Assembly (NCBI GenBank): GCA_044892505.1
Contig: CM097883.1
Span: forward strand, 375,968,001-376,032,000
Source of the DNA: Schmidtea nova
Lineage: Eukaryota
Length of the DNA: 64,000 nucleotides
Reading direction: 5' to 3'
Position numbers and translations under genes: made by a program. Positions within the stretch are counted from its first letter, which is position 1. Each line of letters opens with the position of its first letter. Of this stretch, positions 17,101 to 64,000 are shown piece by piece. The notes beneath the pieces are model-generated. The model was not told the DNA's origin and searched no databases. It saw only the letters and a list, made by a program, of their open reading frames with translations.

Positions 17101-17515
17101 TTTGCGGATACTATTAACTCTACCAGTTTCTGTCGCAAGTGGCGAAAGATCATTTTCTAGACTTAAACTAATTAAGACATATTTGCGATCAAGTATTTCT
17201 CAAGAGAGATTAGTTGGGTTGGCAATGATTGCAATTGAAAGCGATATCTGCGAAGAAATAAAAATTAATGATATTTTGGATGAATTTGCTTCGATAAAAG
17301 CAAGAAAAATAAAATTTTGAATTCATCGTGCAATTTATTTTATGTATAATTGATATCTGTTAATTACAATTGATAACAAATAAATGTTTAATTTTAAATA
17401 ATATACAATAATCAATATAGTTTAATTTGTATTTGAGTTTGTTGATATATTTTTTTATTCAGGGCGCTAAACAGGAACTTGCATCGGGGTGATAGTACCG
17501 CTAGAGCCGGCGCTG
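14136..17515 (+). mobile_element. Full-length hAT transposon (TTF-zinc-finger/ZMYM1-like type) with 8-bp TSD
   Basis: TIRs caggcccggctc / gagccggcgctg; identical TSD CCACTACC at 14128-14135 and 17516-17523. Confidence 0.95.
14781..17320 (+). pseudogene. hAT transposase with few lesions
   Basis: ATG at 14781 (MEKKKLSGAEYRKRK); ORFs 15183-16355 (TTF ZnF, LDCTPD, GQGYDNGANM, CAAHTLNL) and 16451-17320 (PVSVASGERSFS) separated by a frameshift. Confidence 0.92.
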
Positions 17516-19760: not shown

Positions 19761-22344
19761 CAGTGATCGGCAAAGTTTATGGGTACTAGAGCTCATTTCA
19801 AATTTTGAAAACATCCAAGGGCGCAAGAACAATTTCTACCTGAAGAATCGTTGCGTGAAATAACAAAATTGACAAAAAATATGGCACTTCATTTATTAAG
19901 AATTAAGTAATAGAAAACAAAAATACATAAATTATACAATAAAACAATAATAAAAAGTATAATTTATTGCAGTTTAGACGAACTGTGGTGCAACTCTTCA
20001 ATATCGTCCACCAATTTTTCATAATTTGGAATGTACATTGAACTGGCTACTCTCAAACAGTTATCCAAATTCCCATCCGTTAACCGTGACCTGTATTTGT
20101 TTTTAATTACAGCCATCGATGAAAATAATGTTTCACAGAGATATGTTGATCCGAAAAATGAATATATTTTCATTGCAGCTGTTTTTAAATTTCGAATATA
20201 TTTTTTCGTCTACAATTCTCCAAAAATTTGGATTGTTCCGTTCAGCTCAAAATTACATTGTTTTGAAGATTTATGATTTCTACCTCAATATTTTGTTTAT
20301 CAGATGGTGTTTTAAAAATTGTACAAATTCTCTGTGCCATTTCAGTGACATCTATGGACTCAAACGGTGTTAAAATAAAGATCGCAATTGGTTCAATTTT
20401 TGCAAATTGTTCAAATATTATTTCAAATTCGGTATATAAAATTTCTATATGGCAAATAAATGGTCCCACATCAAAAGGTACATTGCTGATAAACTTTTCC
20501 ATTTGTGGAAAATCTTCATAAGACTTCTTTTGCATCTTTTTCATCCAAAAAAGTAATTTGGATTTAAAAGAATTAACGGAACTTATCATATTGACTACAT
20601 GCTTTCCTTTTCCTTGCAGTTCTAAATTTAAAATATTAAGTTTTTGGGTAATATCAGCAAGGAAACCTAAGTCAATTAGCCAAGTTCTCTGATTAAGTTC
20701 TTTAATATCTTCATTTCTAGACATTAAAAATTCTTTAATTTCATAAAAAGGCTCACTAATCTTACAAGCACTTTTCCTCTACTGAGCCACCTAACTTCTT
20801 CATAAAGCAACAAATCTCTGTCTTTCTTACCAGCTGCCTCTAACAATGCTTTAAATAACCTGTGTTGAAGTGAAGACGATCGGATAGAATTTATGGTTTT
20901 TGTCACAATATCCATAACGTGTTTAAATTTTAACACTTTGCAGCAAAGAGCTTCCTGATGGATGATGCAGTGATAACCGATGAATGACGGAAAATAAATA
21001 TCTTTTTGGCAGAGGGAAATAAATCCATTGTTTTTGCCAATCATGGATGGAGCACCGTCAGTAGTTATTGAGCATAACTTTTCAATTGGTATATTTATTT
21101 CACTGACAAATGTTTTAAATATGTGGTAAATGTCCTCGCCTCTTGTTTTGCCTCTTATTGCTAAAACCTTCAGCAATTCTTCTTTAACAGATGCATCATG
21201 GAATACCATTCTAATTATTATACTAAGTTGTGATGTATCACCTATGTCTGTGGATTCATCAAGTTGGAGAGAAAAGGCAAAGCACCTATCGATATCTGAT
21301 TTTAATTGTATTTTCATATCGGTGCCTATCTCTTCTAACCTTCTTGTAACAGTTCTAGCGGATAGTTGCAAGTTTGAGATAGCTGAAATCAATTCCTGTT
21401 TATTATCATATCCTTCATAGAGAGAAACAGCTCCAACTAAAAATGCTTCCTTGAATAGTTCGGCATCGATAAATGGTTTTTTATTTTTAGCAAGAAAATG
21501 GACAATTTTAAACGAGGCAATTGTAGCGTTTTTCGATATCTGTACTGGTCTTGTAAATATTTTTTGTTGCTGCAAAAGATTTGATTTAAGTAATTTGATT
21601 TTATGACATCTCAATTGTGATTTTGGTGGATATTCTTCATTAAATTTACTATGTTTTGTTTTATAATGCCGTTCGACATTGTGCCTCTTCATTACCGTAA
21701 AAATAAAATTACATATCAAGCAAAGACATTTTCCTTTATATTCAATTATCCCAAATTCATCCTCCCAAAGTATGTTAAACAATATAATCGCTGTTTTTTA
21801 TTGTTATTGCTAGCTTTCATTTTCTTTGGGTTTTTCTATAATAAATTAGTAAGAATATCGATTGAAATAAAGTATATTTGTAAAATTATTAAATGAATCA
21901 AATTTAATATTTAATTGTTGTTTGAAATAAATAAACAAATGACAATGAGTAAGAAGAAATCATATCAGTGCTATCTACTATAAAACAATAGTAGATTTTT
22001 GTTTGCTAAAATTTTAGTAAGCAGTTTTTTTATTACTACATTTATGCCAACACTGTATAAGTAAAAACTATTGTCAATTACAGCAGTCAGTATGAAAGTT
22101 TTCTTTCAGTGATAGAGGTTTAAAAGAAATTTCCCTGTCTGATAGTTTTTAAAAGTGATATAAGCAGCTATAAATTTACTTCTGATTAAAAATTATAATA
22201 TTTCTGAAAATTCTTTTTATACATACTTTCTCAAAAGATTTTTTTTTAATATCGTGAGGATATATGAATTTTTTATGCAAAGGGCGCATGAAAATATCTT
22301 GAAGGGCGCACCTGCGCCCGCGGGCACAGGCTTGCCGACCGCTG
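19761..22344 (-). mobile_element. Full-length hAT transposon (SPIN/Charlie/Buster group) with 8-bp TSD
   Basis: TIRs cagtgatcggcaa / ttgccgaccgctg; TSD ATCTAGAC at 19753-19760 and 22345-22352. Confidence 0.95.
19964..21782 (-). pseudogene. SPIN/GTF2IRD2-like hAT transposase, frameshifted
   Basis: CLIC...KRHNVERHY, FSLQLDESTD, TTDGAPSMIG, HCIIHQEAL, VRWLSRG and FGSTYLCETLFS motifs over three ORFs. Confidence 0.93.
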
Positions 22345-23939: not shown

Positions 23940-25849
23940 AAAATGAGCATCGAGAAAAATAAACAATACCAGAGTGTTTGGGCACAGCTTGTGCAAAGCT
24001 ATGATGACAAAAGTGTTGCTATATGTAATCTTTGTAATAAAAAATTGCTTGCAAAGGATCCTCAACGACCGGCTTGCATCGACATTTGCAAGGAAAACAT
24101 TGAATGGAAAAGCGTGCAATGGCAATCGAAGAAAATTTAAATACAAAACGTATGAAATCTACCGAACAAAGCATAACCAAATATTTAACGAGAAGCAATC
24201 TTGAAACGCTTGAGGAAATTGTTTCCAAATTAGCAGCTTTGGAAAATATTCCTGTTCAAAAAATTACAAATTGCGAATTCATAAGAGCAGTATAAAATTA
24301 CGAGGTTTTGAATTACCAAAACAACCAACCGGTGTTATGAATTTAATATATAAGTACTGTGACAAAGTTGAAGAGAAAGTCCGTAAAAAAATTAAGCTAG
24401 CAAAATCAAAAAAACAAAAAATTAGTCAAAGTATTGACGAATGGACTAGCTTTCGTAACAGAAGATATTTTAATATTCACATATATTTTGAGGGTGGTGA
24501 TTCTGTTAATCTGAAATTAATACGAATTCATGAAAGCTGCCCTGCAGATAAAATAATTGAACTAGTAAAATCAAAATTAAATTTATTTGAAATTGATTTT
24601 GAAAAGGACGTAGTGGCAACAACAAGCGATGGTGCTAGTGTAATGACTAGATTCGGATCATTATCCCCAGCAATATTACAGCTATGCTATAATCATGCTA
24701 TACACTTAGCAGTGATGAATATATTTTAATCAAAAATAAAACCAATACAAGAAAATATAAACGTTGATGATAATGAATATGAGGATCAATCAGAAATAGA
24801 TTCATTTTCAGAAGAAGAAAATGATTCCAACATAGATATAAATGAATTAAAAAATGATTCAAGTAATATATATTCAACCATTCAAGAAATTCGAGTAATC
24901 GTTAAAAAATTTAAATATTATCTTGTTCGAAATTCGGTTCTTCAGAAATATGTGATAATAGTTGAAAAAACTGAGTTGCAGTTGTTGCTGGACTGTAAAA
25001 CACTGTGGAACAGCTTGGTAACAATGATTGAAAAATTTCTTCGACTAATTGAACCAATCAAAAAGGCACTAATTGATCTAAATTTAGAACATTTGTGGCA
25101 AAATACTAGCACCATAAATTCAAGAAATATTTTAAAAGCATTAAAGCCAGTTCAAATTGCTGTAGAGGCGCTGTCGCGGCATGACGCAAACCTATTAAGC
25201 AGTGAGGGTGTTTTAAAATTTCTCTTTAGTTCACTTAAAGAAAATAATTCTATATTATCGACAAATTTGTTAAATGAAATTCAAATTCAAATTTGTAAGA
25301 GACGAAAAATGCATTTGGTTTCTCTTCTAAAATTTTTAAATAATCCTAAGTGCCTCACTGTTGGCGGCTCATCATCTGTCGATTTTTTTAGAATGAGTTC
25401 TAAAGCTGATTTAGTGAAATCTGCTAAATCCCTTATAAAAAGGTTGTTTGTTGTCGATGAAGATATTTCGATTTTAAATGAAAATATTAGTAATTTTGAT
25501 GCTGCTGATGGTGCAGATTGCGAAATGATAATGGTAGAAAATAATTTGACAACATTAAAACACAAATTAGAAGTATCAATTAATTCAAGTTTGGCAAAAA
25601 ATTGTAATTAAAAGTGATATAAGCACTGTGTTAAAGGAAATTAATTTATTTGAAGTGACTGGCCAAATTACACCAAATTCGAATTTAATAAAAAGGGCTC
25701 TGTTGACTATTCGGCCAACATCAACGGAAAACGAGCGTAATTTTTCAACAGCAGGACATGTAGTATCTAAAAAAAGAACTCGTCTATCGGATAAGGCAAT
25801 CAACGCGCTGTGTTTTTTGAAGTATTATTTTTTAAAAAATAAAAATTGA
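23940..25849 (+). pseudogene. hAT transposase (BED-finger type), degraded
   Basis: CNLC BED finger, SIDEWTS, TSDGASVM, CYNHAIHL and RPTSTENERNFS; paralogous to 1484-3590. Confidence 0.9.
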
Positions 25850-29293: not shown

Positions 29294-29959
29294 ATTTAGA
29301 TATTTATTTTTAAATGAAATTGGAAATTGGATATATGTAAGTTTATTTTTAATTTATAAATATACTTTTAATTTTGATAACTTAGGTATTTTAATATATG
29401 GAGAAAAAAGAAGTCAAAATTGGTTATGTTGGTTATGTAAGTATATTTTTATAATATTTGCTAAGTAATTAATTTTCGAAATAAATACTGACATAAATCT
29501 AATTAACGAAATTATTTTAAAAAAGAATTATATCGAAGCAATTATGTAGGAAAAGTAATTCAATTTAAGTTAATTAATCAATTTTTGTAAGTATTTTTAA
29601 TTCAAGTCAATTTACCAAAACAAATAACATATATTATGTGATATTTTAGATAATTTTAGTATCATATTTTTCAAATTTTTTGCATTTTAAAGAATACTAT
29701 TAATACCAATAAAATTTAATAATAATTAAACTTAGTAATAATGTTAAATTAACATTTTATAACAATTTATATTTTCGCACTGATGGGAAAATTATTAATT
29801 AAAACAAATTACTTTTATTTTTGATAATTTAAATTTAATTTAGTAAATAAGTAATAGTATTTTAATAAATTTTGTTATTATTTTTAAATATACGCATACC
29901 AATGCAAACAATTAATTAAAACAAATTTGATATTTATTATTAATTTAAACTTTTATTTT

Positions 29960-31070
29960 AGATTAGAAATGTTCAATCCTCCATCTTGGGTTAAATATAC
30001 GTCTTTAACTATTTTTCCATAGTAATTCATCATCGCTACTGATAAAGGGATCATTTTTCTCGTTTCCGAACTGGCATACACCGCGTCGATGAATAATATT
30101 CTATTGAGAACTTCCTCGAGAGCCATTTCTTTCTTAATAAATAAGTTTTCTTTTTAACATTTCTTCTAAAAATTTAAATCAACGTTGAATCCTTGTTCTC
30201 TATTCAGGTTTCCGAAACAATGCTCGTTTCCTCGTTCGCTGCACGTATGGGTTTTTCCAATTCCTTTTTAATTTTCCAATAAGATAATTTTTTTTATTCC
30301 ATCCACAGTTGATTTCCTTCCATTATTTCCACTGCTCCTTTGAGGATATGCAGATAATATTGTTCCTTGCTGAATATTCGAACTTCATTAGTTAACTTCA
30401 TTTCCATTTTTCGGTGTATTTTAAGTATCTTGATTTTTATTTTCCTATCGTCTATTAAGAAATAATTTGTAATTTTTGTCCTGAATGGCGTCTTTGCAGT
30501 TATGCGTAGCTGTCGTATGTTGCCCGTGCCCATTGAATTTGATTCATTCTTACAAAAACATTTATAGTTAAAGTTTTATCAATTTAATTTTGAAGCTATG
30601 GTTAAGATGAAGTGCCTAAAGAATACTGCCTTACCCGTATCTGTTTATATATTTGTTCTTTAGTGCTGGCCAATCAAATTGATTCTTCTTTTCTTTCGTC
30701 GGAAAAGCAGTTTTACACAAACAATGATGATGCTTTCACTGATAATAATGAATAAATGTAAAAAAACTACGACAACGTTATCAAAATTGCATGCAAATTA
30801 ATCATGTCTTACAACACAAATTTTTCTTCATAAATCATCCAAGGTCTCAAAGGCTCGGATTGAATCGTAAAAAGTCTGGATATTTTATTGATTCGCATAA
30901 AACAAAAGCGACAAAATTGATGATAAAGATTGTTATAATAATGATAGTTATGTATAATATCACACACGCAATTTCTTTGTTATTGTTTAATAATGATATA
31001 GCTTTATTATTTGCAATTGATTTATTGCACGACCAAATATCTCGTATAAATCGTACAACCGTTTGACATA
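29960..31070 (-). pseudogene. Second, decayed copy of the env-tail plus exonuclease cassette
   Basis: Collinear similarity to about 49900-51200, e.g. MIPLSVAMMNYYGKIVKDVYLT, KIKILKIHRKMEMKLTNEVRI and the TM-tail region. Confidence 0.88.
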
Positions 31071-43619: not shown

Positions 43620-44114
43620 CTAAAAAGTATTGGATCGGCGCATCCAGCTCCGTTTGATATCTTTATCTTTTTGAAGCTTCTTTTCCTCATAACTTATAGC
43701 TTCCAGTTGTTTTCTACCGACCGCAACAGCTCGACGACCAGCTACAAATCCACTGGGATCGGTTTTGAATAACAGTGGCTTATCCATCTCCTTATCACAC
43801 GAAAATGGGATCATTGAACAGCCTAATGGCATCATTACAGCTGATTGAATATACGCTTGATTTATTTCGACAATACATAGACAAATCTTGTCACAGGACA
43901 TTTCGTAATCCAAATTACACTCACATCGTGCAGCTTCCATTTGTGCACGGCATACTTGCGATCCGCAATCAGGAATCATTTCGGTCCTAACGCAACCGGT
44001 ACTCTCATTTACGTTAAATAATCTTGTAGCTTGAACATCCACAAAAAGTAATCCATTCATCGCCATCGCTTTAAATGCATATTCGGTTCCCAATCGAAAA
44101 CGAAACATATCCAA
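43620..44114 (-). CDS. Intact 164-aa Cys-rich hypothetical protein
   Basis: Open frame in a GC-richer island within AT-rich DNA; many Cys in the central part; no family recognised. Confidence 0.5.
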   Translation of the reverse strand: MDMFRFRLGTEYAFKAMAMNGLLFVDVQATRLFNVNESTGCVRTEMIPDCGSQVCRAQMEAARCECNLDYEMSCDKICLCIVEINQAYIQSAVMMPLGCSMIPFSCDKEMDKPLLFKTDPSGFVAGRRAVAVGRKQLEAISYEEKKLQKDKDIKRSWMRRSNTF

Positions 44115-44810
44115 AATCCGAAATAAATTCCAATAAATTCAATTATTAACGAAGAAATTAAATTAAATCCACAAGATTAAATTATATTTTAAATTCCAAT
44201 CCATTTTACCGCCATAATTAATTAATCGAATAAATCACACAAGATCCAGAAGCCCAATTACAAAATTAATTAAAGATCGTATTCAGCAATTAAATTCAAA
44301 TCATTCATCCAAAGTTAAATTCTGCCAAGATAAATAATTAATTAATTAATCCGATAAAACAAATCCATCCATAAAGCAATTACTTCACAATTTGTTACAA
44401 AACATTTAAAAAACAAAACATGCGTCTTTCATTTAAATTTTCGTAATTATAATTAACACAAACCATTTCTAAAAAATTACACGACCGACCGCACAAACTA
44501 AGCATACCGAGCGAGCAAAGAGAAAATAAATACAGCACAAAATAACTCCAAAAACTGACAAACAACTATCGCAATTTATACAAGTGAGAGTGACATAGTA
44601 AAATATAACAAATAAGCAATTGATTCCCGTTCCAGCATCAAGAAGTCACATATCATCATCACCATCTATCATCTTTTCAAGTCACGAGTATAAATATCAT
44701 CTCAAAACTATCACTTGTGTCCGCAGAATTAGCACATACTACCACACTGCACACCAACAAAGACAAAACTACCCATTCCTACAAATCAAATTTTCTTGAC
44801 GCGATGGTGG

Positions 44811-45618
44811 CTAGTAGCCCCAACTGTTCTGATTCGGAATATGAGAATATAGAAACTGTTGTTGAGGCTGAGGTTGTGGCTGCTGAGATTGCTGTTGATT
44901 CTGACCAACAAAACTTACAAAAGCAAACGACCTAAACGGTCTTGGAATATAAATAGACTCAACTTTTCCGTATTGATTGAAGAAGCTCCGCAAAACATCA
45001 GCGGTTACAGCTTCCGATAATCTACCAACGTGGATTTTGTTGCGAACTTCGTTGGCTTCAGGATTCATCTGAACAGATTTCGAATATGGAATTTTCACCT
45101 CGCACCAGCGATTATCAATGCAATGCTGCTCAGCCAGACACATGACTTGTGCATCGTAATCAGCAAATCTGATAAATGCATAACCTTTACTCTTCAACGT
45201 GTCGGGCTCACGTTTCACCTGTACCATTACCACATCGCCGAATTTCGAGAAATACATTTTCAAAGCTTCGTCATCTGTTCGCCAAGGTATATTTAGCACT
45301 ATCAAATCTGTACACTTCTTCCCTTCCATTTTTTTTCGTTTTAGCTAATGTATATTGTTCATCGTCTGATTTGCGCTTATTATCTTTAAACAACACACAA
45401 GAATATGTATAAGTTTCCCACCCTTCAGGAGGCGGATAAAACCTATCAGAAGCAAATCTCACCCCTCGATATATGCCGGTGTCTTTACTTTTATATTTCA
45501 AACCTGTAGCTTTAGGAAACTGACAAGTTAATGTAGACGACAAGAGAGTTCCATCTTCCTCTAACGGTAACTCAATCGTCGGCTCTTCTTCTTCTTCACA
45601 AACAATTACATATTTCAT
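44811..45618 (-). pseudogene. TARDBP: Intronless TDP-43 homolog with a +1 frameshift and truncated RRM2
   Basis: N-terminal domain (EPTIELPLEEDGTLLSSTLTCQFPKATGLKY), KRK NLS region, RRM1 (DLIVLNIPW...KGYAFIRF...IDNRWCEVKIP), RRM2 start (IHVGR...IPRPFRSFAFVSF), then a short Q-rich tail; extra A in the A8 run at 45329-45336. Confidence 0.92.
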
Positions 45619-47101
45619 TTTTAACTTAGGTTTAAAATTCTCATAAATTAACTATAGAGATATTGATAAGACCGTCTAACGGCTTCCAGGCTCGCTCCAC
45701 AATCTCTCACAGCGATCAAGCACCCAATTAATTATTTTATTTATTATTTAATTAATTTTAAAAATATTTTAAGAGCGGGCGCGACCAAGTATTTAAAAAT
45801 TAAGTAAATGTAAGTGTAGAACATATAAAATAGAAATATTCGGAGAACGATTAATTTCATTAATAAACTTTTGCTAAAAAATAATTTTACTTATATTTAA
45901 ATAAAATACTTCCAAAAAAATTCATATTTTTCTAAAAAACTAATAAATATAAAATAATAATGAAGAATATAGATAACCTTTCAAAGCTTCTATAGTGATA
46001 TTACATCATTGTAAGATCAAAATAGAATCCTTAAAAGATATCTAGATAAATAAAATTACCTGATAGCCATTTTTAAAAAATGGCTAATTGAAAAATAAAT
46101 GTCACCGGGTGTATATAAATACTGTACAGTTAATGCAGCACCATCTTCATTCGATTCAAACCGTGATTAGCCAACAATACTGTCTTGATTTTGACTGTGC
46201 GTCTATATTTGAGAAAGTTGTGTGTATACTTAACTTACAGATATACCATGTAATGGGTGAAACAAAATTGCGTGTGTCAGAAAAACTGACACATTCGAAA
46301 CATTACAGCAGAAAACTGTACAAATTTTTAGCAAATTAAAGTTAGTGTTAAAAATACGAGTAAGTAAACATGCATCTATACACATATAGTTTTATAATGC
46401 AATGATTATACAAAATATATAAAAATAAATGACCAATAGGAAATAAGGATAATGATACTAGCTAGTTAAAAAATTTCAAGTACCTCTTCGAAAGGAATTG
46501 ATTGATATATGCCATTAGCTCATTGTATTAGTTTCACGCATTAAAAATTTCTAGAAAATTTCAACAGAAAAACAGGCCAATAAAAATGAAACATGTTGTA
46601 GCACACGTACACAGTGTACACATTTACAAATTTCAAATTATCGACTCAGTACATCAGTCAGTCTGCAGGATTAACACAGATAAACACACACACTCCCATA
46701 TGTATTTCAGTTATTTCAGTCATTTCAGTTAGATCTGTAAGCATTATTTGTTCCATTTTGTGCATGCTTTGGACAAGCAAAACAAATTTGCGAAGTACTT
46801 GCCAGAATATTCAAAGTAAGTTTTTTTCTTCTCTAACTTAACTTATTGAATATTTATAATTGCATTCGATGTAACCAAAGTTGTTACTACTATAAAGTAG
46901 AAAGGATTTATATTGTTTACGCTAACTATCAAACAGTAGATCTCACAGAATTAAATAATAAATGGTTAAAGAATATTTTTTTTGACGAGGACTAAAAATA
47001 CATGTACATGGTCTTATGGGTAGCAATTAAAAAAAATAAAAGGTTAGTCAAAACTTTAAATTTATTGAACTTAAACTTATTGAGATAAATACAAGAATTT
47101 C

Positions 47102-47138
<37 letters not shown>

Positions 47139-48239
47139 GTGATAATGATAATAATAATAATAGTGATAATGATAAATGATTTTATTTCGTGAAAATAATA
47201 ATGGTAAATTGTCGGTAATTTATTTTAGTTGTCAGTTTTCGCTCAGACTGACACTTTAATTATCCCCGCCATCAATCATTCCGATGCCACCTATCATTTT
47301 TATATAATTGAGCTACTTATCAAATCGAGTTAGACATGTTACTGCGAATGTCGACCATTGCTCAATCAACTAGATCCTATATTTAAAATTTTAATTATGT
47401 GTTTATTCACGAGACATCAATTTTTTAAAATTAGTTAACAAATTTGATAATAAGGCTACTGTCAATGATTTTCGTCATGCCTTTTCAGTTTTGCTGTTAA
47501 TATCTGTTTCGGAGTTTAATTCTTATTTAATGATGGAACGATTTTACAGCGAAACTCATTAGGTATTTATCATTCAGGGCTGTTTTCTCTGTGAGGATGT
47601 GCCCCTTGTAAAATTGATGGCAATCTCATTGGTCCGCCAATTTGGCTATATTAATAAGTCGGCTATCATAATGTTATGATAAAATAAATTTAAATTACTT
47701 CGCAAGCCAAACGAAAAAAAAGTTTTGTCTATTAAAATAATTCGAATATTATTTGGAAGTAAGTGTATGATATAAAGTTTAAAATTATTGAATGCTCTAA
47801 GGTATTAAAATTAAATTTATTATAAATTGAAATTTAATAATCGTTGTGTAATTTGCCAAAATTATTCCCAAGGATTTTGATCAAAGGAACTGAATTATAT
47901 CTATTAATTTAAATTTCGTGATGTTTATTTTCTTAAGAATAGGCATGAATTTGTGTGAAAATTTTATGAAAAGAAAAATGTTGAAAGAAGTTCCACAATT
48001 AGAGAAAAATGATTTTAATTTCAAATTAATATCAGAAAATTATAGCTTATTATATCTAGAGGCGGCTTCACTAGTCAAATATGTTATGAGCCTGAAAGTA
48101 ATATTTTTATTATTGCTTTTATTTTTTTTTTTTTTTGAATTTATTTTTTCTTAATTATTAATTTTGAATATTTTTCTTAATTATTAAAATAATTTCTTTA
48201 AGGATTTTATTTCATAATTTTCCCCAATGATAACCACAG

Positions 48240-48840
48240 TGTGACATGAACAGGAACTACAGAACGTAAATGTTTTAAATTTGTTTATTTATTTATTTAT
48301 ATATTAGTGACAGTTTTATAATAATAATGTAGTTTTATTTATTTCAGAATTTTGTTACTTGATTTACTAAAGCTCGATTAGCAGCTCGAAGATCAATGTT
48401 AAAAACTAAAGCTTATTTATCTTTTATTTGTCCATTAAAACTTTTATGTTAACCTTTTTAATTAATATTGTTACATTTTACTTTCTTTATTCGATTATAT
48501 GTTTAATGTAAGTTCGATTTAATATTTATTTTACTTAACACTATGGAAATTTAATAATAATTCGAAATTTAATAATAGTTCGAATGGTTGCGTTACGTCG
48601 ATAATAATAATAATAATAATATTAATAGTAATAACAATTATAATAACAATAACCGTAATAACAATAATAATAATAACAATAATAATGATAACAATAATAA
48701 TAACAATAAAATTTATTATTATTGCTTAGAACACTATAAAAGTATAATGACTATAGTAATTTATATAATGATGATGTTAATGATACTAATTTCTATAATT
48801 AGGATGATAATGACACTGATAGCATTTACCTCTAACAACA
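48240..48840 (-). mobile_element. Probable 3' LTR of the Gypsy element
   Basis: On the minus strand it starts TGTTGTTAG right after the PPT; the end GTCACA at 48240 is inferred. Contains an AAT tract. Confidence 0.55.
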
Positions 48841-48853
48841 GACCCTTCCCACT
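48841..48853 (-). promoter_or_regulatory. Polypurine tract
   Basis: Minus strand AGTGGGAAGGGTC abutting TG. Confidence 0.65.
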
Positions 48854-49083
48854 CGTCGTCCAGGGTAGCCAAACCCCGGTGATTGGGATTGTTTTGTTTG
48901 TTAGTTAGCTATTTTATTTTTATCTCTATTTAAAACAATTACTTATTTGCTTTATAAGTTGACTGAAAGTTAAAGCTACTGGGTCTAATTGGTGGGTTGC
49001 CATAAATAAACGAATCCACAATATTTTACGATTATTTATTTTATAAATAAATCATATACAGTTTAATAAATTTCAGTTAATCA

Positions 49084-50274
49084 TCAATCCATTTTTATCT
49101 CCATTCGGTTTGATCCGTGCTTGTACCGAACAATCGTTTCTTCTCGCTCATAGATAACACTGCTGTATAATATAGTTTTGCTGACTTCAATTGTCGGATC
49201 TGCTTTCCTTTTCAACTCGTTTACTTCTCTATACATTGGGCCATATTCTAACAAGGGTTGGAGTTTCACCATGTTCCAGTTTGGTATTGTTTCCAGACTC
49301 TCTTCAACTGGATCTATCAGTGTTTCCATTGGATAACTCAGATCAATAGGAGGAACTTCGCTCTCTCCCATTACTATGTATTCACTTGTTAAATCTATTG
49401 CTTCCATAGCCATGTTCTCCAGGATTTGTGCTAACTTTTGCCTATCGGTTCCCTGAGTTGATTTGGATGTGTTGGTATAAAACTTTTTGTATTCCTTTAG
49501 AGAATACTTTCTTGATGGTTGTTTTCTGGGAATCACTATGTCGTCAATCCATTGATTCTCTATCCGTTGGTATATTTTCCGTATCGTTTTGACATCGTCC
49601 AGCGCAGAGTGTATCCAAACCTGCGTTTCTCCGCATATTTCCCGTGATACTGTCTGCAGCTTGAACCACTCTCCTCTTCTGGTTACATTCATTCTTTGTA
49701 GTATTTGTGCAGCTGCAAGATCCCGTATCCCATACAGTTGATCTACCCATATTCCCAGATACTGTAGTTCGGCATGTAAGTCGTGGCCTATTAATATTTT
49801 CCCCACTGTTAGCCTCTGAATATCCTTCATTTCCGAATATTGATCATGCTGATTTCTGCTGGCCACTTCTGTAATTCCATGGATCTTGGAATTGAAATAA
49901 CCAATTTTCCCCCTTGGGGTCAAATACACGTCTTTAACTATTTTTCCATGGTAATTTATCATCGCAACTGATAAAGGGATCATTTTTTTCGTTTCCGATG
50001 TGGCATATTCCGGGTCCACGAATATTATTCTGTTCCGAATTTCCTCGATATCCATTTCTTTCCTAATGAATGAGAGTTTCCTTTTTAACATTTCTGCTGA
50101 TATTTTCATCAACGTTGGATCCTGTTCCTCTGATGGTTGTGTGCTTGGCCTCTCATTTGGCTCGTTTTCTATTTTTGTTTCTAAAACAATGATTGTTTCC
50201 TCATTCGCTGCGCGTATAGGTTTCGCCGTGATTTCCATTTGGATCTTCCAGGACGACCATTTCTTCAATTCCAT
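49084..50274 (-). CDS. DEDDh 3'-5' exonuclease (REX4/ISG20-like), retroelement cargo
   Basis: ExoI IFVDPE, NSKIHGITE, ExoII ILIGHDLHAEL and ExoIII HSALDD, in order and spacing typical of REX4/ISG20-like nucleases. Confidence 0.85.
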   Translation of the reverse strand: MELKKWSSWKIQMEITAKPIRAANEETIIVLETKIENEPNERPSTQPSEEQDPTLMKISAEMLKRKLSFIRKEMDIEEIRNRIIFVDPEYATSETKKMIPLSVAMINYHGKIVKDVYLTPRGKIGYFNSKIHGITEVASRNQHDQYSEMKDIQRLTVGKILIGHDLHAELQYLGIWVDQLYGIRDLAAAQILQRMNVTRRGEWFKLQTVSREICGETQVWIHSALDDVKTIRKIYQRIENQWIDDIVIPRKQPSRKYSLKEYKKFYTNTSKSTQGTDRQKLAQILENMAMEAIDLTSEYIVMGESEVPPIDLSYPMETLIDPVEESLETIPNWNMVKLQPLLEYGPMYREVNELKRKADPTIEVSKTILYSSVIYEREETIVRYKHGSNRMEIKMD

Positions 50275-50543
50275 CCACGGCCTATTCGGTCCATTATTTC
50301 TACTGTTCCTTTGATAAGATGTAGGTATTATTGTTCTTTATTGGATATTCGAACTTCGTCCGTTAACTTCATTCCCATCTTTCGGTGTATTCTGAGTATT
50401 TTAATTTTCATTTTTCGGTCGTTGATTCTGAAATAATTTGGGATTTGTAAGTTGTCTGTAATCTGGAATTTTTGCCCTGCATGGCGTCTTTGCAGCTTTG
50501 CATAGTTGTCTAATGTGGATCTTGCCCATTGAATTTGTTTCAT
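50275..50543 (-). pseudogene. Disrupted N-terminal extension of the exonuclease ORF
   Basis: In the copy at 30294-30533 this segment is in frame with ME(L)KK; here it carries one stop and a 1-nt deletion. tttcag acceptor 5 nt before the ATG. Confidence 0.75.
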
Positions 50544-50619
50544 TCTTACTGAAATATTTATAATTAAAGGTTTATCAATTTAAAATTTGAATCTAGGGTT
50601 AAAATGAAGTGCCCGTATA

Positions 50620-50720
50620 TATAAATATTAATAAAATAAATATATAAAATAAATATTAATATAAAATAAATATTAATATAAAATAAATATTAATATTAAT
50701 ATAAAATAAATATTAATAAA
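50620..50720. repeat. ~17-bp AT-rich tandem repeat
   Basis: aatataaaataaatatt repeated about five times. Confidence 0.8.
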
Positions 50721-51010
50721 AAAATTACCAATTTAAAATTTTGAAATCGGATTTATTTAAAAAAAATTTAAGTTTAAAGGATTAACGCTTCCTTATATGC
50801 CCCTTACAAATTTTCTATAACCTATTTCCTACTTTTCTACTCCCCTTGTCCTTTAGTGCTAGCCAATCAAATTTATTCTTCCTTTATTTCGTCCGAAAAG
50901 CAGTTTTACATGAACATTGATGGCACTATCACTGATAACACTGAATAAAATGTAAAAAACTAATACTACTACTATGTTATCAAAATTGCATGCAAATTAA
51001 TCATGTCTTA

Positions 51011-52200
51011 CTACACAAATGTTTCTTCATAGATCATCCAAGGTCTCGAAGGCTCGGATTGAATCGTAGAAGGTCTGTATATTTTTATCGATTCGCAAAA
51101 GGCAATAGCGCCAAATGTGATGAGAAAGATTGTTAGGATAATGATAATTATAAATAATATCACACACGCGATTTCTTTGTCATTGTTTAATAATGATATA
51201 GTTTTATTATTTACAATTGATTTATTGGTGATGTCATTGAAAGGCGTTGTCATCTGATTTTGGTACAGTGTATTTGAATCGCTGTCATTCATCTTGTCGT
51301 AAAAGATTTGGACGAACTTTTCCTCGACTAAAGTTACTCGCCATAGATTAGAATACGAGATGCGACGCTGATATTTGATTTTCATAAAGACAAATTTTGA
51401 CCTTGATTTTGAGCGCAGTTGTTGAAAGGTTAATATTTGAGATTTATTGCTGCTGTCTAAGATTGCCTGAACTTTTCCACAATAGTATATGATAGCTTTT
51501 TGATTTGGGTCTGCTCTCCAAGTAACATTTATTAACTGATTGTAGATATAAAACTGAACTCAGTTCGTTTCGTTTTATCGCTTGTTGACTAGACTGAATT
51601 TCAATCCATAGATTATCACTGACCGTTCCATTATCATACAAGGATTTTTCATAATAACGAATTAAGATATTATATGTATGAAATAATTTCAAATTAACAT
51701 AGTTTATAAAGGGTTTTCTGCTGTTCAGCGTGTCTATAGCATAATTCTGGAAGACAGTTTTCACTTGTTGGGATTTTTGTGGTTCCCAATGTACATAAAT
51801 TCCATTCACAACGGGTTCAATCGAAACAAGATGCTATAACCTTTTCGTCCAAACAACGAGATGTACCATATTATATATTTTGGTAGTGTTCCCTTTAGAG
51901 CTTAATTGTGTTATTAGCCACTGATATTTATAATTCATCGTTAATTGCCTTGCCACGTGAATGTTTTTATTATAATTCAATCTAAATGAGGGTTCAAAAT
52001 AATCTAGTAAATTATTTACTTCAATTTCCTCTTCCCTTTAACCGTGAAAAAACCATACGATCTGGGTAGATGTTGCATATGTCAATTTTTTCCATCAATG
52101 GGATTCTTTTTGTTGCATACAAGGGAAAAACTCGTATTGCACTTGTACAAAAGACATTTGCCATCATTATTGTTGAAACCAATAAGACTTTGTTGATATA
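51011..52200 (-). pseudogene. Env-like type I membrane glycoprotein (ORF3), degraded
   Basis: Directly after integrase; signal-peptide-like KVLLVSTIMMANVFCTSA, N-glycosylation sequons (NGT, NKS, NKT) and a C-terminal TM helix IACVILFIIIIILTIFLITFGAIAF. Confidence 0.65.
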
Positions 52201-52202
52201 GT

Positions 52203-53840
52203 TTAGTGGAGCTGGGTTTTTGTAAATCTTTGTTTTACTGCTCCTTCTCTGTCTTTAGTCAGTTTTGATCTCAATGGATATCGTGTTATTTCCTCCGACG
52301 GAACTTTCTTGCACCTGTTTACATGAACAATTATTGTTCCAGCTTTTTTATTATTCTGTGGGCGTAATTTCAAATTAGTTTCTGTAGTATCACATACGAT
52401 ATATGGTCCTCTAAACGGTCGCTGCAATTAAGGGGATTATCCCTTTGTCAGCTCTGGTTTATTCACATATACTAAGTCTCCAATTTTAATATCATGTGCA
52501 TGAGTGCGCTTGTCGTAGCACTCCTTATATGCTTCTTGCTGGTGTTTTATTTTAAGTCCAGCTTGAATCCAAACTGTCTGGAGTCTTTCTTGCATAATCA
52601 CTTTATAATCCGATACATCCATATATTGGGAAATAGGCGACTAAAATTTCAGATCGATAGGCATATTGTTTCTTTGTAAGTACATGAGATAGAAAGGTGT
52701 TTTACCGGTACTTTCGTTCACTGCATTTCTGTATGCATACAAATATGGTTTAATGAATAAATCCCAATCTTTTTGTTTTCTATTTACGTATGATGATATC
52801 ATGTTAATTAATGTTCTATTAAATCTTTCCACTAATTCATCTGTCTGTGGATGGTATGGTGATGCACTGATTTTCATTATTCCAAAAAATTCTGTAATTG
52901 ATTTGAACAATTCGCTTTGAAGATTTGTTCCTTGGTCGGTAAGCAATTTGTTTGGTGCCCCATATCGAAATATTATGTTTTCCACAAATATCTTTGCAAC
53001 TGTCTCAGCTTTCTGGTTTTGCATGGGGTAGGCTTCTGGCCATTTGGTTAAACAATCACAGAAGACAATGATGTATTTATTGCCGTTTGTCGTTTCTGGT
53101 AATGGACCGACAATATCCATTGCCGTCATTTCCATTGGTGCCTCCGGTACAGACATTGGTTTTAAAGCAACTCTAATTTTTCGTCCTGTGTTTCGTCTAG
53201 TTAAGCATATTTCGCAAGTATGACACCATTGTCTGACATCTTGTTCTATTGTGTCCCAATAGTATTTTTGTTTTAATCTTGACAATGTTTTTCGAGCTGA
53301 TAAATGCCCTCCTAATGCTCCGTCATGATACAACAATAATAATGATTTTCTATGTTTTGTTGGAACTATAATTAATAAATTTTCATTTTTTACGCATTTT
53401 AGCAAACCATCATGTATAATGTATTTATGTCTTTCCTCGACAATATGCTTCCAGTCGCTTTCTTTTCTAATTGTGACAGCATGTTGACGTAGCTGATTCA
53501 ATTCATCATCCTTTTCTTGATCACTTTGCAATTCCTTCATATTATTTGCAATTTTAATTGCCATAAATATAGTGTTTTCGTACTTTGTTTCATATTGAAC
53601 AACGTCCTTCTGCTCTGAAATTCTCGACAGCGCGTCTGCATTTGCGTTTGACTTTCCTGTACGGTATTTGATCTCAAAATCATATTCCTGAAACGCAATT
53701 GACCATCTTATCAGCTTACTTGCCGAGTCTCTGTGCTTCATTAGCCATTGTAAAGGGTCATGATCAGTGAAAACAACAAATTTTCTACCGATTAAGTATT
53801 GCCTGAACGTAGTAATCCAATATACTAATGCTAACGTTTC
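52203..53840 (-). pseudogene. Gypsy pol 3' half: RNase H C-terminal part and integrase
   Basis: ETLALVYW...FTDHDPL, NADALSR, HDGALGGH...CHTCEIC, MDIVGPLP, TDQGTN, VERFNRTL and GPY; frameshifts near the end. Confidence 0.95.
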
Positions 53841-54241
53841 AGCTTAACTTCCAATTTTCCAACGATATTCAATACATTATGCGCCATTGATTTAATAATT
53901 TTCGTTGTTGGCTTTATTCTTGCCTTTTCCTGTCTCGTCAAGAGGTTCTCAGATACTATGCTGTGGCTTGAGCCTGAATCCAATAACGCTTCAACTTTTC
54001 TTCTATTAAATTGTATGTCAATTCGAAGTTGTTTTCCTCCCAATTCTATGGTCATTAATGCATAACTACATGGTAAACCAAGCATATTCTTTCTTGCAAT
54101 TTCGGCGCTCGATGGTTCAATATTTTCTAACTCGACCTTAATATCATCAACTGGTTTCATTTCTGTCAAATTCTCACTTGGGTATACAGGAGCTGTTGGC
54201 AAAAATGTCGGTGTGTACCATTTAGAGAGTGTCAATTCCAA
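53841..54241 (-). pseudogene. Gag end and retroviral aspartic protease, truncated
   Basis: ALLDSGSSHSIV active-site motif; joined by deletion to RNase H, so RT is missing here. Confidence 0.88.
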
Positions 54242-54419
54242 TTAGTTTTGGTATTGGTTCCAGCAAGAATCTGGATTCGGGTTCTATTCTACGTTTTATT
54301 ATACCCCTTCGAAACGATTTTGGCTCTGATCGGCCGCCATTGCTATCATTGTTGTAACTATTATTTTTATCCTCAAATTCGCATTATGATTCTTCACTTT
54401 TCGGATCATTTTTCAATTG

Positions 54420-55320
54420 TTCTCTAACACTTGCCATTTCCTTATATTGATGATTTGTAATGAAGAATCTAGACAAAAATGGAATTCAACCAATAATCAT
54501 TTTCCATGACCATCCGGAAATTGCATATATTCGTTAAGCGTAAAATATTTGTGATAATATTACTTTTATTGTTACTGCAACTACATAAACGCCAAATACA
54601 CAAATGCTCAAGCTTGTCCTAAAAACATATATCTTCCCCAATTTTTTTCCATTGTCTTAAACGTAGCTCGTTTAAAATGATCAGGTGTCAGTAAATATTC
54701 GTAATTAACTTTTCCTTCTCTATTTGGCAGTATTGTATCAATCATCTTAGAAATCACTCGTTCTTTTTCGAAGGAATAACAAATTTCTTTGGGTTTCTTC
54801 TATATCTTCACTCGCATATAGACCCATTTGTGCCATTTTATTCATTGATGTGAAATTTACCAAGTACTCTAAATTTATTAATTCCAATTTATCTGGAGTT
54901 CTAACTCCCCGGTAATCTGGTAACGCTATCCATGAATTTTGTGCTAAACGATATAATGAAGCTAATAGTCGATTACATTGTAGAATTTTCGGTTTGACTT
55001 TTTCTTCCAACAATATTCGAGTTATGGGTTCCATGAATCGTAATTTCCCGCCAACACTTACCGGTAATTCATTTGTACATTTCTCATATTTCGCGATTTT
55101 CACTATAGTTTCCTTGCATTTGTAACTGTATAATGCTTCTCCAAAGATCCTAGCGAATACACCATTTTCTTATATTAGCATGGGTGCTACTAAATTTGGA
55201 TTGGTAATTGCCATTGCAATTGGATTTCTAAGTATTTCCTTGTTCAACTTACAGTTGTTTAGAATCATTTCTCTATATACATTTTCCATGATGTTTTGAC
55301 TAAAATGAAACAAATAGTCA
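54420..55320 (-). pseudogene. Class III (herpes gB / chuvirus G-like) envelope glycoprotein, C-terminal half
   Basis: NNCKLNKEIL...GVFARIFGEALYSYKC...KCTNELPV...FMEPITRIL...C...W...GLY, then TM segments and ISGWSW; pattern recalled from chuvirus-like G proteins in LTR elements. Confidence 0.75.
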
Positions 55321-55366
55321 ATTTTATTATTAAAGTAATAAGTTAATTTGATATCATCCCGGTGAA

Positions 55367-55414
55367 TTCTTGTTTTAGCCTCATATACAATCGTATATGA
55401 GGCTAAAACAAGAA
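55367..55414. repeat. Perfect palindrome, 22-bp arms, 4-nt loop
   Basis: ttcttgttttagcctcatatac-aatc-gtatatgaggctaaaacaagaa. Confidence 0.95.
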
Positions 55415-55833
55415 AGGGATGTCCAATTGGAAGACTTACCCTATCGCTGAAAAGTGCAGAAACAACAAGTTTAACTGTAATTGTGTATTGAAATTCAAAT
55501 AAAAGTTATTGTATTGGGTTTTTTTTCAATTGATTTATAAAGAAAGGACACGATGAGTCAGAGAGTAACCAACTATTTCATAATAACCCAAAATATTAAT
55601 TGAAAATTTTCCTTCTGTAAAACTGAACTGTCATAGCTATGCATTTGAACTGACTATTATATCAATAAGTATCTTAAAATCTTTTGTTGAGCTTTTTCTT
55701 AAAATAATTAATACAGAGTCCACCACAAAATCTAATTTTGGCGGTTATTTTTAAAGATCTGTAGAAAATATGATTATTTAAAAAAAATAAAACAATTAAG
55801 TCATTTAAAAATGAAGTTTTGCCTCCAGGATTG

Positions 55834-55921
55834 TTAGTCAAGTTTCTTGACCATATACTTGGTAATTATGTCTATCATAACTTCATCTGCCCCTCCTCCA
55901 ATCGATACCAATCGAAGATCC
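55834..55921 (-). CDS. Acyl-CoA dehydrogenase, terminal exon
   Basis: (R)DLRLVSIGGGADEVMIDIITKYMVKKLD*, after a 53-nt GT-AG intron (55922-55974). Confidence 0.88.
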
Positions 55922-55974
55922 CTGACCAATAGACAGATACATTATTACACAACAATATACGCTACGAAACATAC

Positions 55975-56201
55975 CTAAACATTCGACTGACATACATGTC
56001 AGCTGTAAAGCCAACTCCGCCGTAAAACTGTAAACATTTATCAGTTATTTCTCTACATATTCTTCCGACTTTTAATTTAGCCATTGACGCAAGAGGAGTC
56101 ACGTCAACTTTATCGAATGTATAGTTATAAACAGCTCGGTATAAAAGGGACCGAACACACTCAAGTTCTGTAAGTAATTCACCCAATGTGAATGCAACTA
56201 C
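55975..56201 (-). CDS. Acyl-CoA dehydrogenase, penultimate exon
   Basis: ttttcag acceptor; VVAFTLGELLTELE...ASMAKL...CLQFYGGVGF...VSRMFR; the 227-nt exon keeps phase with the last exon. Confidence 0.9.
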
Positions 56202-57769
56202 CTGAAAATAAAAAAAATCATTTCAAATTGAAATATTTATAATTTTTAAGGCCTTCTTAAAAATGTACAGGGAAATGGATTTAATAGAAAATTTATTGGG
56301 TATCCAACCTTAAATCTCCATAACAACGAACATTATTCCCCTGCTCGGCCATTTGATATAATTTTTCAAGTCCTCATTCGTAATCCCACAAGATATAACC
56401 GTTAACACGTGATTTGGTATGTCCACGTTAGCAATATTTGCGGTATATAGGCTACGTCAGCAGTGAGTTCAATCCTCGAACTTTGCGTCTACCCCTATCA
56501 ATTTAATATCTTGGTCAATAGATGACCTTTTATGGAGAAATCTGTCTTAACCGTAATGAACACTCTATTTACCAAAGACACTAACTTCCCTTACGTTTAT
56601 TCTCTAGTATTAATTCGGTATTTATCCGTAACTTTCGCTTACGATCAGACAAGAATAGTAGACAGAAATATATATTTATATACATATATTTAGATATTCA
56701 GTTTGTTACTTGGATTAAGCTCGAACGTCAAATTGAAGATGTTATATTTCCGCAATTAATAGATCCTTTTTGTTTTGGACGGTTTGTTTTGTTTTAAAGA
56801 GTACCACTGCTGTTGCTGGCACTTTTCATTGCAATTTCTCTAGATTTTGTTTTAGGATTTCACTCATGACCTGATTTGTTTTCCTTATTCGTGATCCACA
56901 AATTTAGTGACAAAATTAGTGACAAAATTTAGTGACGCATTTTCCTATAATAGATAAGCATTAACCCGTTCTAAATTAGTGATTTTTTGATGTGATTGCT
57001 GGGTTTTGAAAGGTTAGGACCAGGTTGCATTCAATCGCGTAATTTTGTTTGACATTTCCTTCAAGGTCCCCGCATTGACATATCTTAAATCTTTTCGATG
57101 GTCTTGACATATGTAGATATCGGAATATTAAATTATTACGAGTAAACGGAATTTAGATTCCTTATATATCACAATATCTCTGACATACACTTCCAGAGCC
57201 CTCTATTTCTATGTTATCTTTCCTCTGAATATAGTGCTTTAGCCTTTTGTAAGCGGCTATTAAATTTGAATAAGTCTGACTGTACGTTGTCTAATATTCT
57301 CCTAGAAAAAATTAAAATTCTAGTCTCTAACGAGCCTTATATGCAAGAATATCACTCCCAAGTCAAAAAGAAGCATTTTAGTCTTTTTCGAGCCTTAACG
57401 CTAGGAAATGAAAAGTGAAATAAGTCTCGATCGAGACTTAACGCTCGGAAAAGGTTATTCATTTGTTCGACAAATACTAAAATAATGAGTTAAATCAACC
57501 AATTAATTTATTGCTACAAGGAAAATCTAAGTACAAACTATATATAATTTAGTCTATACAGTTTTCAAAATCATCTTTCAGATTCTTTCGATATTTTGAA
57601 TAGAAATGTTCTATTATCTCCATCACCTCCACTTTGATTAGGATGTAATTATTAGTCTGCATAAGCAACTCATAACCCAATGTGATTTTCGCTAGTACTA
57701 TAATAAACTCACCAGTATTCATTTTATTATTCTAGGTGCAAAATGTCGAAATGGTATTGGAAATAAAGA

Positions 57770-62382: not shown

Positions 62383-62716
62383 TCTGAGTCACTCCCGAGT
62401 GGGTTTGTACAACAGATATAACAGAATTAAAATTTTTACTATACTTATTTTATTTATTTATTTTGTTCGTTACAACCTTTACTTATTTCTTTACGATTCA
62501 TACCTATTATTTATTTATTTTAGTTTTATTCATTGTCTAATTATTTTCTTTAACTTTTGTGAGGGTGGGAGCGCAAAAGAAACATAAAACCTAAAATAAT
62601 AATTTATTAATTTAATACAATTTTGACTTTTCTATTGTCTTTTTTGTAAACTGCAACGATTTTCTCGAGTTGAAACTCTTCTCCATCAATTGAGATTTTC
62701 TTTTTGGCTGCCACTA

Positions 62717-64000
62717 TCTTTTTCGATTGTTGAATAGTTTTTTTCATGCGGTTTCAATGATCGACTAGCATATGCGATTACATGATCTTTTTCTCTTTCA
62801 GCCTTTTGTCCTAATACCTCTCCCAAAGCAAAACCGCTTGCGTCTGTCATTAACATAAATGTCTTTGTGAAGTCAGGACATCGTAATATTGGGTTCATCA
62901 TTAATTTTTGTTTGAGTATCTCGAAAACATCCTGCTGAGCTTTGCCCCACACGAATTTCGTAGTTTTCGTTAATAGCGTCGTTAATGGTTGAGCAACATG
63001 TACAAAGTTTCTAATAAATTTTCTGTAATAGCTTGCTAACCCGAGAAATTGTCTAATATCATCAATATTTTTTGGAGTTGGATAATCTTTAATTTTCTTA
63101 ACATTTTCTGGATTTGGTTGTAGACCTCTTCGTGAAATGATGTGTCCAACATACACTACCTCTGATTTTCCCCATTCACATTTTGATGGTTTGATTTTGA
63201 GATTTGCTTCTCTGAGCCGTTTAAATACCGTTTCCACATCTCTCATATGCTCTTCGAAATTACACGAGAAGATTATAATATCATCTATATACACCAAAGC
63301 GTGTGGAATATCTCGCAGCACAAAATTCATTCCTCTTTGAAATGTCTGGTGCACCTATTAAATCAAATGGTAAAACATTAAATTCATACAAACCTTTTCC
63401 ATCTGAAAACGCTGTTTTCCCTTTATCTGTCTATTTAACTTTGAATTGATTTATTTAAATCAATAACAGTAAAATATTGAGCTTTTCCCATTTTGTCAAA
63501 CATTTCCTGGGGAACCGGAATTGGATACGTATCTTTTCTTGTCACTTGATTCAACTTTCTATAGTCAATACAAAATCTTAGTTCACCGTCTTTCTTCTTG
63601 ACCACAACAATAGAGGAAGAAATGGTGAAAAACTCTCTCTAATAATATGAAATTCTTTCATAGCCTTTATTTGTCTATCGCTTTCGTTTTGATGTGCATA
63701 CGCAATTCTGTATGGCCGTAATTTAATTGGAGTTTCGTCAATTAATGGGATTGCATGCTCAATTATATGAGTTACTCCCAGGTCATACTCATGTTTCGCA
63801 AAAATATCTTGATATTTTCTCAACAATTTTGTAAATTTTTGTATTTGCTCTTGCGTCAACTCGTTGTGGTTATTTATATATTTTAATATTTTTTGGTAAT
63901 CTTTTATTATCGATTTTTAGGATTTTTGTTAGCTTTCCTAATTTCGTTTTTGGTTTTAATGACACTTCTTTGTCGTTATTGTTAGTGATACGAATAGGAA
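62717..64000 (-). pseudogene. Gypsy reverse transcriptase and N-terminal RNase H
   Basis: PIKLRPYR, RFCIDYRKLN, YIDD, FLGLASYYRKFI, TDASG and YASRSL...NYSTIEK; frameshifts; runs off the window edge. Confidence 0.95.

Follow-up and report, generated by a model that had tools for sequence, protein, structure and literature searches.

The Gypsy elements described here appear to have held for a long time an accessory gene which is predicted to encode a cupin-like domain fused to an ISG20-like exonuclease, is likely expressed from its own promoter and likely counteracts RNA-based defence of the host. This reading as a whole, in which the counter-defence role is adopted because of analogy and the exclusion of rival explanations, has in our judgement an even chance of being right. 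It is nearly certain that the elements make functional use of the gene.

The window, i.e. the whole stretch of 64,000 nucleotides analysed, contains on its minus strand a truncated, broken and dead member of this roughly 17-kb Gypsy family, extending from about 55409 to 48223. Its parts and those of a second relic are as follows, with the evidence in brackets.

54201..55409 (-): broken 3′ part of the true env (Monjiviricetes_fusion); 5′ limit of the window copy (Pfam, comparison)
53840..54232 (-): partial aspartic protease, with the RT deletion junction near 53840 (Pfam, comparison)
52250..53840 (-): C-terminal half of RNase H and integrase (Pfam, comparison)
51020..52250 (-): post-integrase extension of the polyprotein, broken, with a hydrophobic start, a C-terminal TM helix and weak FN3-like features (Pfam, TM prediction, comparison)
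50544..51010 (-): spacer with a predicted internal promoter and 5′-UTR intron (sequence motifs)
50985-50996 (-): octamer-like motif (spacer motif)
50863-50871 (-): inverted CCAAT box (spacer motif)
50791-50799 (-): TATA-like box (spacer motif)
50724-50729 (-): donor-like GGTAAT (spacer motif)
50586..50645 (-): degraded remnant of a covarying hairpin of ~50 nt which is whole in four subfamilies (E=0.77 in the window)
50549-50550 (-): acceptor-like AG (spacer motif)
49084..50543 (-): accessory gene, cupin-like plus DEDDh exonuclease, broken (ORF, comparison with L036)
50163..50543 (-): predicted N-terminal cupin-like (double-stranded beta-helix) domain, about residues 1-128, without the metal triad (models, fold searches, conservation)
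49540..50040 (-): REX4/ISG20-like exonuclease domain with a D-E-E-H-D site (ExoI 50016, ExoII 49788, His 49611) (Pfam, ISG20 match, fold and profile searches)
49087..49510 (-): acidic low-confidence tail with a basic, possibly NLS-like KRK cluster (model, omega 0.19)
48223..49083 (-): truncated 3′ UTR including a purine tract at about 48841-48855; the true PPT and LTR are missing (comparison with family loci)
29955..31027 (-): second, older relic of a related copy, with polyprotein end, spacer and 5′ half of the accessory gene (comparison)
30589-30646 (-): whole hairpin in the spacer of this relic (hairpin search)

The 417-aa open frame within the window (49084-50337, -) matches Pfam RNase_T with E=0.0027, under the curated cut-off, and human ISG20 with E=2.4e-6. 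It carries D-x-E at 50016, GHDL-x-x-E at 49788 and H-x4-D at 49611, the middle residue of D-x-E being a proline, which is rare for the family. An earlier note, made from the letters alone, had proposed a REX4/ISG20-like DEDDh exonuclease on a Gypsy element, and these matches bear it out, as do the Pfam matches to protease and RNase H/integrase found upstream of the exonuclease on the minus strand, where it had placed them. Its statement that the catalytic domain is open holds for the 417-aa frame but not for the whole gene, which starts with an ATG at 50543 and is broken by a stop after 71 codons and a frameshift near 50289. Its identity to the family-A copy in L036, which is open, is 92–93%. 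The window copy has lost its RT (deletion junction at 53838-53840), and none of the three family LTRs matches the window sequence.

Two candidate features were rejected. The purine tract and TG at 48841, about 230 bp past the stop, had been taken for the PPT and the start of an LTR; they are internal 3′-UTR sequence, since both lie at the same place in the other family-A loci and the true PPT and LTR of L036 lie 3,102 bp past the stop. Likewise, the ‘env’ seen between integrase and exonuclease is a C-terminal extension of the polyprotein with no Pfam match and one TM helix, while the true env (Pfam Monjiviricetes_fusion, 54750-55505) lies upstream of the protease. The earlier note had overlooked two features, the cupin-like domain at the N terminus and the promoter-like spacer.

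A genome search with the nuclease domain gave 2,177 candidates, of which 150 were scored; most of these 150 had open frames. Three retrieved copies with both LTRs (814–869 bp, 99.5–100% identical) have TG..CA ends, one common PBS and a PPT, and the L036-L037 element is 17.0 kb long. Intact copies encode a single ORF of ~3,400 aa (open frames 3,393–3,402 aa), Gag-Env-PR-RT-RH-IN, in the order Gag, CCHC, Monjiviricetes_fusion env, PR, RT, RH, IN and a TM-anchored extension. A Pfam Bcl-2 match before env was obtained in two subfamilies (E=0.003 and 0.038, below the cut-off) and none in family A; subfamily D has a weak ubiquitin-like match. The extension (L036:6512-7753 (-), window 51020-52250) has a hydrophobic start and a C-terminal TM helix, and its Atlas features give a weak FN3/cytokine-receptor-like lead, below the recognition mark; a second surface protein and a receptor decoy are two possible roles. 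After the polyprotein come a spacer of 270–420 bp and a separate accessory ORF of ~480 aa, present in five subfamilies (A–E).

These elements are a recently active, envelope-bearing, Burro-like Gypsy family. Planarian Burro/GYPSM1 has env in frame between gag and protease in one polyprotein of 4,873 aa, in elements of >30 kb (PMC6431247, part of the text). The same part describes the features shared here: Gag, CCHC knuckles and a mononegavirus-type env between gag and protease, all in one polyprotein that goes on with PR-RT-RH-IN. Burro also has a BCL2-like motif before env, to which the sub-threshold Bcl-2 matches may correspond. However, the present elements are about half that size (~17 kb and 3,400 aa), and no Pfam match to MATH, BIR, ankyrin or dUTPase was found in them; with this middle size and no such cargo, they are Burro-like rather than Burro. 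The accessible portion of the Burro account (PMC6431247) names no exonuclease.

To count retention we used the 150 best integrase matches, which are 91–100% identical and belong to subfamilies A–C; for D and E, presence of the ORF is known from single copies. The accessory ORF lies within 6 kb downstream in 144 of these 150. A listed exonuclease match was found within 6 kb downstream in 111 and at 17–20 kb in 4, and among the remaining 35 loci the ORF is present in 33 and most of the nuclease core in 29. The two matches without the gene are internal deletions joining the post-integrase region to the 3′ end. In one of these two (L125, G000:C3:93778996-93784995) the polyprotein is open at 3,393 aa; thus, the gene is at least not needed in cis. 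In a further copy (L042:4334-10000 (-)), integrase is fused in frame to the exonuclease. This copy, with LTRs 99.5% identical, is 2.4 kb shorter than the others, and the fusion is a deletion product.

Several other copies (L031-L033, L072, L075) are deleted, non-autonomous or tandem derivatives which have lost RT or env and keep an open accessory ORF. One copy (L079), whose cupin part is near-identical to that of subfamily B (pS 0.013) but whose nuclease and tail have diverged (pS 0.18 and 0.46), is likely a recombinant. Clusters of ORFs with a P-loop ATPase lie beside several copies (L033:6579-9834, L084:2740-10000); they resemble genes of Maverick/Polinton elements.

Among 7 subfamily representatives the nuclease had an omega of 0.060, the N-terminal domain one of 0.108 and the tail one of 0.191, values which are imprecise because dS is saturated between most subfamilies. 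Fixing omega at 1 cost 296, 111 and 68 log-likelihood units, respectively. The unsaturated pair L003-L083 gave omega of 0.07 and 0.11, and pN/pS within subfamilies was 0.29–0.59. The D-E-E-H-D residues are kept in 44 of 48 distinct copies, picked for being open, and altered in the other 4. These five catalytic positions are also held across subfamilies that are 36–61% identical, and in most database members. The ExoII residue of the element enzymes is a Glu in place of Asp, which may alter or lower activity. Pairwise identities of exonuclease and RH-IN correlate with rho 0.91 over 9 elements, the pairs not being independent, and the two trees disagree on the attachment of subfamily D. As judged by these sequence comparisons, the accessory gene is under strong purifying selection and diverges in step with pol.

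Structure prediction for residues 1–345 (108 aligned sequences) gave a pLDDT of 96.8 and a pTM of 0.91. The C-terminal half is modelled as a DnaQ-like fold of the DEDDh superfamily, with ISG20 as best match (Z 18.6, rmsd 2.2 Å over 160 residues), followed by PAN2, PolC and SDN1; RNase D (Z 9.2) and SARS-CoV-2 ExoN (Z 9.8) score lower. Profile search was led by ISG20L2, ISG20 and the small-RNA nuclease SDN1. ExoI D-x-E, an acidic ExoII in the form of Glu, and ExoIII H-x4-D are all present. For the N-terminal 130 residues, cupin/2OG-oxygenase barrels dominate the top 50 fold matches with a middling best Z of 8.8. No Pfam cupin match was obtained in any of 49 members, nor was the His-x-Asp/Glu...His metal triad found, strong conservation being limited to one His (89%) and a single acidic position (93%). 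The tail is acidic, modelled with low confidence, and has a KRK cluster in all five subfamilies. No TM helix was predicted in the protein. The model predicts a cupin-like barrel fused to an ISG20-like DEDDh domain.

All five spacers contain an octamer-like motif, an inverted CCAAT box 103–123 nt later and a TATA-like box; in shuffled spacers the CCAAT box occurred at rates of 0.025–0.05 and the octamer at 0.004–0.007 each. In four of the five, a GGTAAT donor 123–132 nt upstream of the ATG is followed by a pyrimidine-AG immediately ahead of the start codon. The interval between donor and acceptor holds a hairpin of ~50 nt (z -2.6 to -6.1). Among 10 related rows, both partners have changed in 7 of its 19 pairs; these rows come from only four subfamilies, one of which supplied the structure. 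No credible Rfam family could be assigned to any of 7 loci. Taken as sequence signals, the octamer-CCAAT-TATA array, the likely 5′ intron and the covarying hairpin predict an internal promoter. There is a precedent in Oikopleura Tor elements, where an internal env promoter after pol was shown by RACE (PMC4402516, in the part seen); there too a 3′ gene is driven from the post-pol intergenic space, whereas here the promoter is predicted from conserved motifs and serves a nuclease gene. Donor and hairpin were not found in subfamily D, nor was the hairpin in the more distant locus L091, and both keep the gene. The spacer of a related family with a dead nuclease site, described below, does not have the octamer-CCAAT-TATA array. 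Splicing from the LTR leader is thus a possible and live alternative route of expression. In contigs from four sequencing runs of a single study, whose molecule type is unrecorded, no splice junction could be assigned, a result that bears neither way on expression.

A query with a dead catalytic site retrieved a second high-copy family from the same genome (78 scored). Its elements are ~14.6 kb long, with Gag-Env-Pol, LTRs 99.7% identical and the same PBS, and their RH-IN is 59% identical to that of family A. The accessory ORF, of 654 aa, matches both domains (E=8e-82) and has lost most catalytic residues, with a pN/pS of 0.06 among 8 open copies. Since this family has moved recently, mobility in that lineage does not depend on catalysis, while the fold is kept. 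A second dead-site query (P0056) found nothing in the genome at E≤1e-20.

A word-index search for homologues returned no relative with a single protein and one with an alignment, so that a full profile scan was needed. Among 1.84 billion protein representatives, 37 proteins matched at E≤1e-30, many of them in both domains, with REX4-like proteins appearing from ~1e-15. The tree was built from 151 of 162 rows; the intended outgroup was among the 11 short rows dropped, and it was therefore midpoint-rooted. A clade of 72 rows (SH-aLRT 99) stands apart from 79 REX4-like rows, including the host REX4 exon. Host REX4 is an intron-split gene with a canonical site and is ~48% like other REX4s, against 22–30% for the element domains. 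Within the 72-row clade, basal members have Asp at ExoII, a derived group has Glu and a further group has lost the site; the dead-site subclade arises inside the region of the tree occupied by D-E-E-H-D forms. We would place the origin of the gene in an ancient capture from a REX4/ISG20L-type ancestor.

Outside this genome (G000), the layout recurs in metagenome sequence with an RH-IN 52% identical: at L091 and L092, the accessory gene follows a Gypsy pol with ankyrin repeats and one more ORF. Other database members of the clade are presumably element-borne as well, the context being available for a few. Related, unnamed Env-Pol polyproteins occur in metagenome assemblies (55–60% identical in RT-IN), and none of 15 related database polyproteins includes the exonuclease domain. 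Used as a distant DEDDh query in the genome, L091 gave recognised matches falling in the known subfamilies. An IMG/VR scan gave 6 pattern matches, none confirmed, and the tree places L094, a find of the metagenome scan, with ordinary REX4.

The L091 contig further contains a second protease, ankyrins, two further ORFs, one weakly ubiquitin-like, and, before the exonuclease ORF (L091:8801-8940 (+)), two identical 51-nt GC-rich structured repeats with no Rfam match. Many metagenome contigs of the exonuclease cluster P0035 (24 members) and of the Env-Pol cluster P0260 (21 members) are 15.6–17.0 kb long, and P0042 and P0276 have a common longest contig of 32,242 bp; these contigs may be whole elements.

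How could such a protein serve the elements? ISG20 is an antiviral nuclease of vertebrates. Transcription from the octamer-CCAAT-TATA array, with a short 5′ intron, would yield the protein apart from the particle polyprotein, and the KRK cluster could direct it to the nucleus. There it might act on RNA 3′ ends, be they those of small silencing RNAs, of their precursors or of immunostimulatory element RNA. Binding would be the core job, with catalysis kept in some lineages and lost in others. We regard such a nuclear RNA-binding or RNA-trimming counter-defence as most likely and favour it over proofreading. A stronger version, which we offer as a tentative possibility and would sooner doubt than accept, is a whole env-bearing Gypsy lineage with a dedicated anti-silencing protein of the ISG20 nuclease family under its own promoter, kept since a deep split; in some subfamilies it would break down small RNAs of host defence, and in others, as a dead enzyme, it would sequester them. 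If true, an animal LTR element would here encode an enzyme that suppresses piRNA/siRNA defence. To our knowledge, few element-encoded counter-measures to piRNA/RNAi control are known in animal LTR elements, and the question bears on how these elements stay active under such control. As the protein is compact, soluble and confidently modelled, and exists in active-site and dead-site versions in one genome, its substrate and role are directly testable.

The protein could instead mature or stabilise the element's own RNAs, through 3′-end trimming, export or hairpin-based control of translation, in a Rev/Rex-type manner and with no action on host defence. REX4 and ISG20L2 relatives trim structured RNA ends, in keeping with the titles of their PDB entries. 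The conserved hairpin adjoins the gene in four subfamilies, dead versions would fit a binding role, and 3′-end processing was proposed for a rotifer exonuclease, ORF3 (PMC5408684, in part). On the other hand, subfamily D and L091 keep the gene with no hairpin found. We consider this explanation rather improbable; with the replication proposal that follows, it is one of the two main rivals.

Another proposal is that the nuclease serves replication, either by trimming cDNA or primer ends or by proofreading for RT in a large genome, like nidoviral ExoN. ISG20-type enzymes also cut ssDNA, the elements are large (~17 kb) and the site is complete in five subfamilies. The ExoII residue of nidoviruses can be D or E, and their ExoN is linked to the size of the genome (PMC7968707, as far as accessible). 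However, the gene is a separate ORF outside the polyprotein, the domain is absent from the 15 related database polyproteins, and the single in-frame fusion to integrase is the deletion product described above. Conservation of a dead site in the recently mobile sister family further weakens the proposal, and with it the cDNA processing suggested in the earlier note; we judge it unlikely. Still less probable is that the Glu-for-Asp enzymes are already pseudo-nucleases, all members being scaffolds or decoys: the conserved dead-site subclade does lie inside the D-E-E-H-D part of the tree, yet the five catalytic positions are held across the divergent subfamilies and in most database members.

Finally, a one-off, neutral retrocopy of host REX4 carried along passively would suit the broken window copy, but is already refuted by the retention in 144 of 150 loci, the omega of ~0.06, the separate clade and the intron-split, canonical host gene with its closer likeness to other REX4s. 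The earlier note had set this reading against a captured nuclease serving the element, and it is the latter that is supported: full-length members, which might have lacked the ORF, carry it, it is under purifying selection, and both the tree and omega set it apart from a copy nested in host REX4.

Cell-derived DEDDh nucleases are known from viruses, in nidovirus ExoN and the arenavirus NP exonuclease, which serve proofreading or immune evasion (PMC7968707, in the accessible text). Here the structural match to ExoN is much weaker than that to ISG20, no zinc fingers were seen, and the carrier is reverse-transcribing. With ISG20 (1wlj), ISG20L2 (7yw5), REX4 and Arabidopsis SDN1 (5z9x), the element enzyme shares the fold (Z 18.6, TM 0.83 on the target) and motif spacing; it differs in ~20% identity, Glu at ExoII, the extra N-terminal barrel and acidic tail, and a separate clade.

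The closest published layout is that of the bdelloid rotifer LTR elements Juno and Vesta, in which a separate ORF3 after pol encodes a putative DnaQ-like DEDDy 3′-5′ exonuclease, with DEDD changed to DEED there too (PMC5408684, part of the article). In contrast to this RNase D-like DEDDy enzyme, the present one is REX4/ISG20-like DEDDh, with His in ExoIII, which points to independent capture. It also has the cupin-like fusion, a carrier with env and dead-site paralogues, and is under strong purifying selection, whereas the same part reports for ORF3 no clear departure from neutrality within a genome. DEDDy exonucleases are cited as known accessory domains of LTR elements (PMC6338049, part of the text). 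The earlier impression that this is not a standard Gypsy domain thus stands for the REX4/ISG20 type, of which no report was found, and gives way for post-pol exonucleases of LTR elements at large, with the rotifer ORF3s already published; novelty is partial. Our full-text literature search found no REX4/ISG20-type DEDDh nuclease or cupin fusion in an LTR element, and the accessible parts of PMC9289625 and PMC11410931 mention no exonuclease; Repbase/Dfam or the Burro supplements could already annotate the ORF. After the rotifer case, the present gene is the second instance in which LTR elements have captured a DEDD nuclease, independently of the first, and such repetition suggests repeated selection for this activity. 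The elements also extend the Burro-type proviral architecture to mid-sized, recently mobile families.

Other sequences were noted in the window. An RT-RNase H fragment of a related subfamily (62713-63998 (-), and L090) has ~72% DNA identity to family A, and env fragments of this relative lie beyond the window end. A TDP-43-like gene (TDP-43_N plus RRMs; 44811-45651 (-) and 43620-44138 (-)) consists of two overlapping frames with no evident intron and adjoins a proteasome-subunit fragment; it is perhaps a retrocopy. Short exon-like stretches at ~55840-56600 (-) resemble what we take to be an acyl-CoA dehydrogenase C-terminus. Transposase-like ORFs, hAT-like by eye, lie at 1642-3590, 15159-17320, 20242-21797 and 24214-25849.
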